Below, one piece after another: positions 23,479-49,160 of a DNA stretch of 64,000 nt. Location of the stretch: assembly GCF_036643215.1 (NCBI RefSeq), contig NZ_JAVXSJ010000001.1, positions 219,531-283,530 of the forward strand. The letters are read 5' to 3'. The translations under genes were made by a program, and so were the position numbers. The notes under the pieces are model-generated. The model saw only the letters and a program-made list of their open reading frames with translations. It was not told the origin of the DNA and made no database searches. This DNA is from Comamonas sp. (GTDB lineage: Bacteria; Pseudomonadota; Gammaproteobacteria; Burkholderiales; Burkholderiaceae_C). The first letter of the stretch is position 1. Every line of letters starts with the position of its first letter.

Positions 23479-23579
23479 TTATCCCCAGTACATGTGGGCT
23501 GGCCTGTGGGTAAATAGAGGCAAAACCTTTCAAAGCCTTTGCTGGTAACGCTTTGAAAGGAGTGCCTTAAAAATAGGCG
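23479..23579 (+). repeat. 101 bp dispersed element, copy A (TTATCCCC...TGTGG...TGTGG...GCTTTG...AAAAATAG.CG)
   Basis: Aligns without gaps to 49060-49160 (59/101 identical by hand count). Confidence 0.7.
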
Positions 23580-23582
23580 ATA

Positions 23583-24365
23583 TCAGCAGCGCACAAATGC
23601 GGGAGTCCGCTTTTCCAGAAAGGCGTTGACGCCTTCAAGGCTGTTGGCTGCGCCCGCGCAGACGCTGATCGCGTAGCGTTCTGCTTCAAGGTGGGCTTGC
23701 AAAGCATGGTCGTGAGCCTCGTCGCAGAGCTTTTTGATATGGGCCAGCGAGTTGGTAGAGCCTGCCGCCAGTTCCTCGGCGAGTTGCAGCGCCTGTGCAG
23801 CCAGTGCATCTGGCTCGTGCAGCTCATCAAATATGCCCATGCGCAGGCACTCCTGAGCCGATGCCGGGCGATTGCTCATCAGTAGATATTTGGCGCGAGA
23901 AGCACCAGCGCGGCGCGTGAGGTAGTAGGACGAACCCAGATCGGGGCTGAGGCCAATGGCGGAGTAGCCACCGCGCAAGAACACCTTGGTTGAGGCCAGC
24001 ACGATATCGGCGCACAGACCTATGCCAATACCGCCGCCGCCCAGCGCGCCTTGAATGGCGCTGATGACGGGGATGGGCAGTGTGGCCAGCGTGTGCATGG
24101 TGGGGTTGAGCACAGCCAGAATTTCATGGATGGTTTGCGGCAGGCGATCCCGGTTCTGCACAAATTCGCGGATATCGCCGCCCACGCAAAACTGTTTGCC
24201 CGTCGCTGAAATCAGAATCGAACCAACGTCAGCCACGCGGGCCTGCGCTACGACGCCTGCCAGTGCATGTGCCATGGGCGTGCTGATGACATTACCCAAC
24301 TCGGGCTGGTTCAGCACGACATGACCCACGCCGTTGCGCTCTTTCCAGAGGACGAGATCAGACAT
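23583..24365 (-). CDS. Enoyl-CoA hydratase/isomerase family protein
   Basis: FCVGGD, ISAIQGALGGGG, IGLSPDLG crotonase motifs. Confidence 0.88.
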   Translation of the reverse strand: MSDLVLWKERNGVGHVVLNQPELGNVISTPMAHALAGVVAQARVADVGSILISATGKQFCVGGDIREFVQNRDRLPQTIHEILAVLNPTMHTLATLPIPVISAIQGALGGGGIGIGLCADIVLASTKVFLRGGYSAIGLSPDLGSSYYLTRRAGASRAKYLLMSNRPASAQECLRMGIFDELHEPDALAAQALQLAEELAAGSTNSLAHIKKLCDEAHDHALQAHLEAERYAISVCAGAANSLEGVNAFLEKRTPAFVRC

Positions 24366-25921
24366 CAGGCGACCTTTCTTTCTTGATGCGCCCAGAACGG
24401 GGCGCGTAGCGTGGTCTTGAGAATCTTGCCTGCGCCAGACAGCGGCATGGCCTCGACAAAAGACACTTCACGCGGGCACTTGTAGCTGGCGATGCGAACC
24501 TTGCAAAAATCAATCAACTCTTCGGCCTCCAGCGCCTGCCCTGGCTTGCGCACGATGAAGACATGCACTTGTTCGCCCCATTGCTCATGCGGCGTGCCGA
24601 TGACGGCGCAGGCTGCTACGGCCGGGTGGGTGGCAATCACGCTTTCCACTTCAATGCTGTAGACGTTTTCGCCACCGGTGACGATCATGTCCTTGATACG
24701 GTCTACGACGAAAACATAGCCGTCTTCATCCATGCGCCCACCGTCACCGGTGTGCATCCAGCCGTTGCGGATGGCAGCCGCAGTTTCTGCCGGCTTGTTC
24801 CAGTAGCCGAGCATGACACCCGGGCCACGCACGACGACTTCACCCACTTCGCCGCGCGGCAGCTCATTGCCTTCGGGGTCGACAATGCGTACTTCGGTGC
24901 AGACCGTGGCGCGGCCTGCGCTGCGATGCCAGCCCTTGGCGCGGCCTTTCTCGCGGTGCATTTCGGGTTTGAGGATGGTGGCAACGGGCGACAGTTCTGT
25001 CATGCCGTAGGCCTGAATAAAGCCTGCATGAGGAATGGCCTTCATGGCGCGGTCCAGCAGCCCTTCTGAGATGGGTGAGGCCCCGTACAACATCTGCTGC
25101 AGGGAGCTCAGGTCGTATTGCTGGATATCTGGGTGATCCACCAGCATCTGAATCATGGTGGGGACCAGCAGCATGTCTGTCACGCCGTGGGCGGCGATGG
25201 CTTGCAACACACCAATCGGGTCAAAACGCGGGAGCATGACGTGGCAGCAGCCTGCGGCAAACAGGGCATTCATGAAGGCACCATCGGCCAGGTGGAACAT
25301 GGGGGCGGCATGCAGGCCAATGCTGCCGCGCCGGACGGTACCTTCGGCCACGCCCAGAATCGAGTTGGTGTAGAGGTTGCCATGACTGAGCATCACGCCC
25401 TTGGGCGAGCCTGTGGTGCCGCCGGTATAGAACACCCCAGCCAGATCATTGCCGCTGCGCATGGCATCTTCGACAGGCGCAGCTTCGGCAACCAGCGCTT
25501 CATATGACCGCATGCCTTGCGGCGCTGCGCCGTCGCCCAGATGAATCAGCGTCTTTAAAGCGCTGGAGAGCTTTTTGATCTCTGGGGTGAGGGGCGCAAA
25601 CGTATCGTCCACCAGCAGGATACGGGTCTCGCAATCGTCCAGAGAGTAGGCGATCTCGGCCGCGCTCCATCGGATATTGATGGGGTTGACCGCCGCGCCC
25701 GCCCAGTAGCTGGCCATGTAGTACTCCAAATACCAGTCAGAGTTCAGGCTCAGAATGCCGACCCGGTCACCGGGCTGCACACCCAGTGTTCGCAGAGCAC
25801 CGGCAAAGCGGGCGACACGGTCGCCCAGTTGCGTAAAGCTGCGTTTGCGCCCGTTGTAAATGCTGGCGGTGGCATTGGGAGACTGTTGAATGGCACGGCG
25901 CAGACTTTGAGTGAGGTACAT
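24365..25921 (-). CDS. Long-chain acyl-CoA synthetase
   Basis: YTGGTTGSPKG, YGMTE, TGD, DRIKDMIVTGGEN, GKILK adenylate-forming motifs. Confidence 0.9.
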   Translation of the reverse strand: MYLTQSLRRAIQQSPNATASIYNGRKRSFTQLGDRVARFAGALRTLGVQPGDRVGILSLNSDWYLEYYMASYWAGAAVNPINIRWSAAEIAYSLDDCETRILLVDDTFAPLTPEIKKLSSALKTLIHLGDGAAPQGMRSYEALVAEAAPVEDAMRSGNDLAGVFYTGGTTGSPKGVMLSHGNLYTNSILGVAEGTVRRGSIGLHAAPMFHLADGAFMNALFAAGCCHVMLPRFDPIGVLQAIAAHGVTDMLLVPTMIQMLVDHPDIQQYDLSSLQQMLYGASPISEGLLDRAMKAIPHAGFIQAYGMTELSPVATILKPEMHREKGRAKGWHRSAGRATVCTEVRIVDPEGNELPRGEVGEVVVRGPGVMLGYWNKPAETAAAIRNGWMHTGDGGRMDEDGYVFVVDRIKDMIVTGGENVYSIEVESVIATHPAVAACAVIGTPHEQWGEQVHVFIVRKPGQALEAEELIDFCKVRIASYKCPREVSFVEAMPLSGAGKILKTTLRAPFWAHQERKVA

Positions 25922-25971
25922 GGCAAGCCTTTCGGGGCACAGGGGTTAGAGAGTCGTTGAGTGAATTCCGG

Positions 25972-48002: not shown

Positions 48003-48061
48003 GTTTTCGCCTGAATGGTCCGCAGCCAGAGAGCTGCGGACAGCCCCTGTAAAGACTAGGA

Positions 48062-49003
48062 ATGAAGATGCAGATACACCCTGAAATGGCCGCTGTGCTT
48101 GAGCAATTCAAAGATGCTCCGCCTATGGATTTTGTGAATACGCCCGTGCCTGAAATCCGCAAGCTTATGGATCACATGGCGTTTCCACCCGGCAACCTGC
48201 CCATGCATGAGGTGCGTGAGCTGAGCGTTCCCGGTGGCGATGGGCAGGCCATGAAGCTGCGCCTGTACCGCCCCAGCACCGCGCAGTCAGCACCCGTCAT
48301 GGTTTATTTTCATGGCGGTGGCTGGTGCATTGGTACGCTGGATACGCATGACAACCTGTGCCGTCACCTGGCGCGCATTACCGGCATGAATGTGGTGTCG
48401 GTCGATTACCGGCTGGCACCCGAGCATGTGTTCCCTGCTGCGCTGGATGATGCCTATGCTGCTACGCGCTGGGTGGCAGATCATGCGGCCGAGCTGAGCT
48501 GTGATGCCAGTCAGCTGATGGTGGCGGGTGACAGTGCCGGTGGCAATCTGGCGATAGCGACCTGCCTGCGCGCCAAGGAAGATGGCTGGAAGGGCATCAC
48601 GCAGCAGCTGTTGTTTTATCCTGTTTGTGATTCGCGCATGGATGCGCCATCGCATGCGCTGTATGCGCAAATGCCGATTCTTACGCGTGAGGCCATGGCC
48701 GCCATGTGGCGTCACTATCACCCAGGCGTGCCAGCGCACCCGCTCGCATCCATCATGCAGTACCCCGATGTCGCGGCTCTTCCACCTGCCGTGCTGGTGA
48801 CAGCCGAGCTGGACATTCTGCGAGATGAAGGCGAGGGCTTTGCCAAGCGTTTGCAGCAGGCGGGCGTGCCGGTTTCAAGCATGCGCGCAGAGGGAATGCT
48901 GCATGGCTTTGCCAACTTCAGTACCTTGGTGCCGGCAGTGGCCCGCTTGCTGGAAGAGGCCTGCAGCAAGCTGCAAAATCACAGCGGCAGGACTGTGAGC
49001 TGA
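48062..49003 (+). CDS. Family IV (HSL-like) esterase
   Basis: HGGG, VDYRLAPEH, GDSAG, D and HGF triad residues. Confidence 0.9.
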   Translation: MKMQIHPEMAAVLEQFKDAPPMDFVNTPVPEIRKLMDHMAFPPGNLPMHEVRELSVPGGDGQAMKLRLYRPSTAQSAPVMVYFHGGGWCIGTLDTHDNLCRHLARITGMNVVSVDYRLAPEHVFPAALDDAYAATRWVADHAAELSCDASQLMVAGDSAGGNLAIATCLRAKEDGWKGITQQLLFYPVCDSRMDAPSHALYAQMPILTREAMAAMWRHYHPGVPAHPLASIMQYPDVAALPPAVLVTAELDILRDEGEGFAKRLQQAGVPVSSMRAEGMLHGFANFSTLVPAVARLLEEACSKLQNHSGRTVS

Positions 49004-49059
49004 GTCCATTTTTCGCAACTGTGAATGCGTACAGCTGTGTTTGTAGGATGCTGCAGATT

Positions 49060-49160
49060 TTATCCCCGCATCGTGTGGACGCTTTTGTGGAAAACTCCGC
49101 TTTAATACGCTGAAACCCGCGCCAGATGGTGCTTTGCACGGATTGCTTAAAAAATAGACG
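49060..49160 (+). repeat. 101 bp dispersed element, copy B
   Basis: Gapless match to 23479-23579; lies between convergent genes. Confidence 0.7.

Follow-up and report, generated by a model that had tools for sequence, protein, structure and literature searches.

In E. coli, DnaA-reactivating sequences (DARS) recharge the replication initiator DnaA: they promote the release of ADP from ADP-DnaA, which is then reloaded with ATP, and they raise the level of ATP-DnaA and initiation in vivo. These sites are built around an essential core of three DnaA boxes, in which boxes I and II lie head-to-head across a 5-bp gap and box III is directed as box II, and it has been proposed that ADP leaves the DnaA protomers bound to boxes I and II (Sugiyama et al., 2019; PMC6868365). 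DARS1 lies in the bioD-uvrB intergenic region, upstream of uvrB, with its core at 813107-813141 of NC_000913.3 (TTATCCACT-ATTCC-TGTGGATAA-CCA-TGTGTATTA), and DARS2 lies between rppH and mutH, with its core at 2969135-2969169 of the same record (TTATTCACC-TTTTC-TGTGGATAG-AGT-TGTGAAGAA). Here we describe the architecture, conservation, wider family and genomic contexts of a pair of repeats found in a 64-kb stretch of DNA from Comamonas sp. (G+C 60%), which we refer to throughout, at its full length, as the window. Each repeat appears to be a non-coding nucleoprotein module of about 103 bp, neither a gene nor the end of an island. The two modules are very probably multi-site elements that bind DnaA. 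That both copies would also modulate the nucleotide state or the availability of DnaA, in the manner of a DARS, we put at a probability of roughly 50%.

Two non-coding repeats have the box layout of a DARS core

The pair had been pointed out in an earlier note on this DNA, and recomputing the gapless comparison of 23479-23579 with 49060-49160 gave the same count of 59 identical positions out of 101 (58%), against best scores of 53 and 54 in two shuffled windows. In an all-against-all scan of direct 101-nt windows across the 64 kb, the pair was among the six best and was the sole non-coding one; the pairs that outscored it are paralogous genes. The similarity begins abruptly at 23479 and 49060 and fades at about 23581 and 49162, and the unit is therefore 103 nt long rather than the 101 nt originally given. 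Both copies, each a putative DARS-like module, are on the + strand: copy A, read from box I in the direction of a Fis-like site, spans 23479-23581, and copy B spans 49060-49162.

The gene context was also as previously described, with the copies in the same orientation and copy B between convergent genes. Copy A is flanked by two minus-strand genes, one for an enoyl-CoA hydratase (23583-24365), whose stop faces the copy, and exo, a 3'-5' exonuclease gene with a DNA_pol_A_exo1 domain (22809-23453), whose start does; 25 nt separate box I of the copy from the exo start codon on the opposite strand. Copy B has an esterase gene on its left (48062-49003, + strand) and an rlhA-type peptidase U32 gene on its other side (49270-51276, minus strand). 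About 50 nt from copy B, and outside the repeat, is a bidirectional intrinsic terminator common to the esterase operon and rlhA (49213-49252).

Each copy contains three predicted DnaA boxes in the same arrangement: box I (TTATCCCCn), 5 bp, an inverted box II (TGTGG....), 3 bp, and box III (TGTGGRWAA). On the + strand copy A reads TTATCCCCA-GTACA-TGTGGGCTG-GCC-TGTGGGTAA. Its box I (23479-23487, + strand) matches TTATCCACA at 8 of 9 positions, its box II (23493-23501, minus strand, inverted relative to box I) matches TGTGGATAA at 5 of 9, and its box III (23505-23513, minus strand, directed as box II) matches at 8 of 9. Copy B reads TTATCCCCG-CATCG-TGTGGACGC-TTT-TGTGGAAAA on the + strand, with box I at 49060-49068 (+ strand, 7/9), the inverted box II at 49074-49082 (minus strand, 6/9) and box III at 49086-49094 (minus strand, 8/9). 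Read on the other strand, box III of copy B is TTTTCCACA, which fits the relaxed DnaA-box consensus TTWTNCACA.

The three-box core, with boxes I and II opposed across a 5-bp gap and boxes II and III in the same direction across a 3-bp gap, gives a 9-5-9-3-9 layout whose spacing and orientations are common to copy A, copy B, DARS1 and DARS2. Where 0.01 occurrences would be expected in the 64 kb, the skeleton of this core, TTATNCNC-N6-TGTG-N8-TGTG, is present exactly two times. It also matches both DARS1 and DARS2 perfectly, and allowing up to two mismatches produced no hit in the oriC, dnaA-dnaN or datA regions of E. coli. Both Comamonas copies are intergenic and outside oriC, and the GC skew is monotonic across the window, with no change of sign.

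Beyond the boxes, each copy has a central dyad, an inverted repeat AAAGCC/GGCTTT centred near +65. In copy A (23532-23555) its blocks are AAAGCC (23532-23537) and GCTTTG (23550-23555), and in copy B (49113-49136) they are AAACCC (49113-49118) and GCTTTG (49131-49136). When this helix was tested by name, 70% of cells were paired, against at most 54% in slid controls, and none of the covariation was significant or above that of shuffled alignments. The dyad is an inverted repeat at the level of sequence, not an RNA helix. Further along, at +86, copy B carries a 15-mer (GCTTAAAAAATAGAC, 49145-49159) that matches perfectly the Fis consensus GnnYAnnnnnTRnnC (Kasho et al., 2014; PMC4245941), and copy A a similar 15-mer (GCCTTAAAAATAGGC, 23564-23578) with 5 of the 6 consensus positions. 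This 15-mer (+86-100) is itself a dyad, and in both copies it includes an A-tract.

All of the conserved blocks listed in the earlier note are present, and they can be assigned putative identities: TTATCCCC, TGTGG and TGTGG would be the three DnaA boxes, AAAnCC and GCTTTG the dyad, and the 3' block GGAnTGCnTnAAAAATAGnCG the Fis-like site. Its proposal of a multi-site DnaA nucleoprotein element is supported by these results and can be sharpened to three predicted boxes in the layout of the E. coli DARS core. What stands of its overall interpretation is the conserved DnaA multi-site element; the non-coding RNA (ncRNA), the island border and the recombination hotspot that it offered beside this are not supported, as discussed below.

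Copy B is strongly conserved in the Comamonadaceae

Gene order was taken from contigs that encode relatives of exo, and the element was then located on them by profile search. Fourteen Comamonadaceae copies align over 103 nt without any gap, and among orthologues the positions of TTATCCCC, TGTGG and TGTGG..AA are invariant. Copy B is identical to its orthologues in three lineages (L108, L126 and L016) at 85-92 of 103 positions, with box II unchanged and the Fis consensus at +86 perfect in all four B orthologues. With L016, a distant Comamonas, copy B of the window shares 85 of 103 positions, and the two exo proteins are only 66% identical. Copy B, which cannot serve as a promoter for its neighbours, is under strong purifying selection. 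Orthologues of copy A were found upstream of exo in six contigs (L003, L009, L013, L014, L015 and L016). The A-type copies cluster, as do the B-type copies, but they are far more diverged, with 59 of 103 positions shared between copy A and its L016 counterpart.

Since copies A and B each have an orthologue in L016 and are only 58% identical to one another, the duplication that gave rise to them is old and predates the split of these lineages. Two other lineages (L070 and L168) have a single, exo-proximal copy, and because these single copies are B-like (69-74/103), we took the B type to be ancestral. The B type is strongly constrained over its whole length, and copy A is a relaxed paralogue that has kept the boxes, the dyad and the A-tract site.

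Between the esterase stop and copy B lies a LexA-type SOS box (CTGT-N8-ACAG; CAACTGTGAATGCGTACAGCTG, 49019-49034), placed 41 nt ahead of box I. L108, L126 and L016 have the box too, at -40 to -42; it is the only occurrence in the window, and one of a kind seen 18 times in the 1.13 Mb of all fetched loci. Neither strand has a gene after it. The box might drive SOS-inducible read-through of the element, or it might be what is left of an exo promoter. On the other side of copy B, about 20 nt past its end, the heptamer AAGGGTT (49183-49189) is invariant in the four B-copy lineages within otherwise variable surroundings. Next to copy A, exo has no visible Shine-Dalgarno sequence (23454-23478); a TGTAAT hexamer, part of the stretch AAGCTGnTGTGTAATCACC that is kept in A-type orthologues, ends 7 nt before the ATG, and the exo mRNA may be leaderless or have a very short leader.

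The interval between rlhA and exo (23454-49269 in the window) is a variable spot in Comamonas, occupied by 0, 2, 5 or about 22 unrelated, mostly catabolic genes, and its cargo is free of mobility genes in all of the lineages compared (L010, L016, L070, L166, L168 and the window). The largest block is that of the window and of the lineage of Comamonas sp. 26, whose exo protein is 94% identical to that of the window; about 22 genes (23583-49003) lie between the two copies in the window, and sp. 26 was fetched at the copy A region only. These genes encode acyl-CoA ligases, dehydrogenases, hydratases, biotin carboxylase/carboxyltransferase, BKACE, a Baeyer-Villiger monooxygenase (BVMO), an esterase, and AraC and TetR regulators. 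In L016, where rlhA is outside the fetched part, there are at least four genes upstream of exo (two short-chain dehydrogenases/reductases (SDRs), a BVMO and an esterase), bracketed by two copies. L168 has five unrelated genes between rlhA and exo and one copy just upstream of exo, and L070, on whose contig rlhA was not seen, has other catabolic genes upstream of exo and again one copy just upstream of it. In L166 two genes separate rlhA from exo and the one copy is downstream of exo. Finally, in C. terrigena (L010-L012) rlhA is directly upstream of exo, with nothing between them. The empty site predicted in the earlier note does exist in the form of this adjacency, but the element is absent from it.

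The gap between rlhA and exo is thus variable, and some lineages have a single copy or lack the element; the repeats are neither needed for the presence of cargo nor recent products of its insertion. For the esterase/BVMO module that is linked to the B copy, the proteins of the window are 72-83% identical to those of L016, a range that does not clearly exceed that of core genes (50-97%), so we do not conclude that this module was transferred recently. The block in the window also contains paralogous pairs (34909-35624 and 38922-39622; 41789 and 44219; 32145 and 45945), comprising two acyl-CoA dehydrogenases, two acyl-CoA ligases and several SDRs, which account for the top direct-repeat scores of the window. 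The only sequencing runs that held the sequence were DNA runs of wastewater metagenomes, and no RNA-seq runs were found for the organism.

A wider family of three-box elements

We scanned metagenomes with the pattern TTATCCCC-N6-TGTGG-N{7,8}-TGTGG and obtained at least 120 loci. The counts that follow refer to the matches listed. The spacing between boxes II and III is 3 bp in 121 of 125 and 4 bp in the remaining 4. Although the pattern demands only TGTGG of box II, this box is a perfect TGTGGATAA in 54 of the 94 distinct sequences, where about 0.4% would be expected by chance. Beyond box III, A/T runs peak at +70 to +99. A perfect Fis consensus at +86/87 is present in 27 of 91 elements, against 0-4 per other 10-nt bin, and the sequences that fit it are very diverse. 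Matches to the IHF consensus WATCAAnnnnTTR (at least 8/9) begin between +119 and +125 in 17 of the 91 elements, where the background is 0.0005 per position. The contigs range in G+C from 0.29 to 0.76. No dnaA, dnaN, gyrB or mnmG gene was found near the family loci, so that the family does not represent oriC; on this ground, and on that of the monotonic GC skew of the window, we rejected oriC as the identity of the element.

Repair genes recur beside these elements, as judged by Pfam domains. At least five loci are flanked by xseA, which encodes the large subunit of exonuclease VII (L055, L078, L085, L124 and L159), at least three by uvrC (L068, L090 and L122), at least three by mfd (L069, L110 and L118), and at least three by a SRAP/YedK-type gene (L062, L089 and L093); in the Comamonadaceae the neighbours include the 3'-5' exonuclease gene. 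On the low-GC contig L069, Mfd is about 60% identical to proteins of Sedimenticola and Thiodiazotropha, and by this similarity the contig, the one metagenome contig that was placed taxonomically, is gammaproteobacterial.

A scan of a genome collection used N8 between the TGTGG blocks, which corresponds to a 4-bp spacer between boxes II and III and leaves copies of the Comamonas type outside the pattern. Matches were at about the level of chance, and real members were limited to Variovorax sp. KBW07 and Zoogloea oleivorans, whose elements are full-length with the 4-bp gap. Z. oleivorans has two same-orientation copies 3.4 kb apart (L038 2651-6179) with perfect TTATCCACA boxes. Several other matches to the N8 pattern (L020, L030, L031, L032 (Streptomyces), L025, L035) lie between or beside dnaA and dnaN; given these neighbours, they are probably DnaA-box arrays of oriC and not members of the family.

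Same-orientation pairs 0.5-0.7 kb apart were also seen in the metagenomes (L048 6770-7392, L123 1152-1763, L139 3537-4160, L151 5354-5977 and L132 8293-9016), and in the pairs on high-GC contigs the two members are of two distinct conserved subtypes. Such pairs recur, and that of Comamonas may have started as a close tandem that was later split by inserted genes.

Rather than marking island borders, the repeats belong to a large family that is apparently undescribed, with members in Comamonas, on one gammaproteobacterial contig and on many contigs that were not placed. In the literature covered, which did not extend to Fujimitsu et al. (2009), we found no description of this three-box family, and searches for DARS-like elements beyond the relatives of E. 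coli, for the motif string, or for a DnaA regulon of xseA, uvrC or mfd returned nothing relevant. We offer only tentatively, as something that may well prove too broad, the generalization that DARS-type sites form a large family in betaproteobacteria and non-enteric gammaproteobacteria. Its members would have a core with the TTATCCCC box, a Fis-like site at +86 and often an IHF-like site at +122, with frequent same-orientation pairs and repair-gene neighbours, and the best-conserved copy of Comamonas would be coupled to LexA.

A proposed mode of action and its alternatives

How might the two modules act? In a DARS-like mechanism, DnaA would occupy the three boxes and form a head-to-head pair on boxes I and II. 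Nucleation may start from box III, since this box is strong (8/9) and box II weak (5-6/9). A nucleoid-associated bending protein would probably be recruited at the +86 site, as IHF and Fis are at DARS2, and the DnaA complex would then alter the nucleotide state of DnaA, as DARS does. The invariant C of TTATCCCC suggests that box I is deliberately weak, as it is at both E. coli DARS sites. Lying 25 nt from the start codon of exo, copy A may double as a DnaA operator for that gene. The catabolic genes, for their part, would have accumulated between the copies and would not have been mobilised by them. The binding of DnaA and Fis and the reactivating activity are predictions from the sequence. 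Under the broader, tentative generalization offered above, the LexA coupling of copy B would tie the control of initiation to the SOS and repair network.

Several observations weigh against this reading. First, DARS have been placed in E. coli and its close relatives (PMC4245941, PMC5742627, PMC11724364). Second, the strengths of the boxes are reversed: box II is the strongest box in E. coli and is essential there, being perfect in DARS1 and having one mismatch in DARS2, yet it is the weakest in the window copies (5/9 in A, 6/9 in B), where box III is best. Third, the C of TTATCCCC is invariant although it departs from the box I consensus. It could reflect a tuned, low affinity for DnaA, or a different protein might bind TTATCCCC. 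Fourth, the accessory sites are arranged differently, with essential IHF sites followed by essential Fis sites (at about +146) in DARS2, and a Fis-like site at +86 followed, where present, by an IHF-like site at +122 in the family. At the family position neither window copy reaches 8/9 for an IHF-like site, the best matches lying elsewhere (8/9 at +68 in copy A and 7/9 at +110 in copy B), and the Fis consensus that we used is a loose one. Finally, the position of copy A and the repair-gene neighbourhoods would fit a plain operator role equally well.

At dnaA, nrdAB and uvrB P3, DnaA is known to act as a transcription factor. The three-box clusters might serve as operators through which neighbouring genes, most of them for DNA repair or exonucleases, respond to the status of DnaA, with no part in the exchange of its nucleotide. 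We consider this unlikely. Like the boxes of known operators, those of copy A stand beside a gene start, that of exo, with the flanking AAGCTGnTGTGTAATCACC kept in the A orthologues, and the link to replication and repair genes is common to both; among other family members, box I precedes the divergent uvrC and mfd genes by about 0-190 bp. The orientation is not constant, however, because box I faces exo, uvrC and mfd whereas it is the Fis-like end that faces xseA. Copy B argues more directly against an operator, as it lies between convergent genes, next to a terminator, with no gene to regulate, and is nevertheless the more conserved copy (85-92/103). A promoter scan found no sigma-70-like promoter in the region of either copy. 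In addition, the exact DARS geometry and the fixed Fis- and IHF-like sites exceed the needs of an operator, and no DnaA-box promoter operator is known to require exact three-box geometry.

It is quite improbable that the copies are negative sites resembling datA, which would titrate DnaA or stimulate hydrolysis of DnaA-ATP. The general class is the right one, since datA too is a non-coding group of DnaA boxes away from oriC, arranged around an IHF site and acting with a bending protein, and such clusters with a nucleoid-protein site include it. Its box layout is different, however, as the absence of the three-box skeleton from datA indicates, and its effect on DnaA is opposite to that of DARS. 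A head-to-head pair of boxes I and II with a 5-bp gap is a DARS-specific feature (PMC6868365).

Could the repeats have been produced by, or used for, the site-specific or homologous insertion of the 25-kb block? They do bracket it in the same orientation, as the att repeats of an island would flank a strain-variable block; the rlhA-exo interval is indeed variable (no genes in C. terrigena, about 22 in the window), and L016 likewise has two copies around a smaller block. Yet att repeats are short and nearly identical, come with an integrase and often lie beside a tRNA gene, whereas the copies here are 58% identical, derive from a duplication older than the split from L016, where both have orthologues, and belong to an independently conserved module that is present at many other, unrelated loci. 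No integrase or transposase was found among the open reading frames of the block, and its GC content is not atypical. Cargo is present with one copy in L168 and upstream of one copy in L070 (where rlhA was not seen on the contig), the copy of L166 is downstream of exo, and C. terrigena has none. As for the features of a dispersed repeat, there are two copies in the 64 kb and no terminal inverted repeats. The role as island border or recombination hotspot that had been suggested for the pair is therefore very improbable, given the low identity, the missing integrase and transposase, and the relatives that have a single copy or lack the element.

A small RNA gene or cis-acting RNA element is just as improbable: copy B is conserved over its whole length, and the LexA box upstream and the terminator about 50 nt downstream make an SOS-inducible transcript of about 200 nt conceivable, but Rfam gave only noise (at the gathering threshold for the whole window and at permissive E-values for both regions), RNAalifold on 14 copies gave a consensus of -1.9 kcal/mol with no compensatory pairs and no structure, no promoter-like site was found, the small open reading frames that overlap copy B lose their frame from one lineage to another (for example in L108), and what has been conserved are the positions of consensus sequences for protein binding. 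With no covariance-model match, no consensus fold and no covarying structure, we rejected a structured RNA or Rfam family, and with it the ncRNA unit considered previously.

Comparison with the E. coli DARS sites

Of the known systems, DARS1 and DARS2 are the ones against which the DARS-like reading has to be measured. The modules resemble DARS1 in their three 9-bp boxes with 5-bp and 3-bp spacing and box I opposite to boxes II and III, in the imperfect box I, and in being non-coding, outside oriC and adjacent to a DNA-repair gene with a LexA box. They differ in that box II of DARS1 has the perfect consensus, in that DARS1 has no Fis-consensus site at +86, and in their host, which here is a betaproteobacterium; the activity of DARS1 has been proven experimentally, and that of the window copies is predicted.

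DARS2 has the same three-box core as the modules. Past box III it has fixed-distance sites for nucleoid-associated bending proteins, as the modules are predicted to have, and an A/T tract lies around +90-100; upstream of box I a gene on the opposite strand begins, which is rppH in E. coli and exo, uvrC or mfd in the family. The same scan applied to DARS2 placed IHF-like sequences at +94 and +110 and a perfect match to the Fis consensus at +146; the window copies differ from it in having no IHF-like site at the family position. The repair-gene neighbourhood has parallels at both E. coli sites, in DARS1 at uvrB and in DARS2 on its mutH side.

A third site with the 9-5-9-3-9 layout was seen in E. 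coli K-12 (TTATCCCAG-CTTTC-TGTGGATAA-CAT-GGTGTAAGA, NC_000913.3 2969451-2969485; L043 3452-3486). It lies just upstream of mutH and overlaps ygdT, and its IHF-like site is where the family has one, at +120. A 'speculated DARS3' has been mentioned, with no location given (PMC4585315).

For annotation, the repeat pair should not be read as the ends of an island. The core geometry of a DARS together with positioned Fis- and IHF-like sites makes these elements concrete candidates for DARS outside E. coli, and a connection of initiation control with the response to DNA damage is hinted at by the repair-gene neighbours and by the conserved LexA box. Set beside the known systems, the Comamonas modules differ in their accessory layout, their box strengths and their host group, and their function is a predicted one, while their core has the architecture of a DARS.

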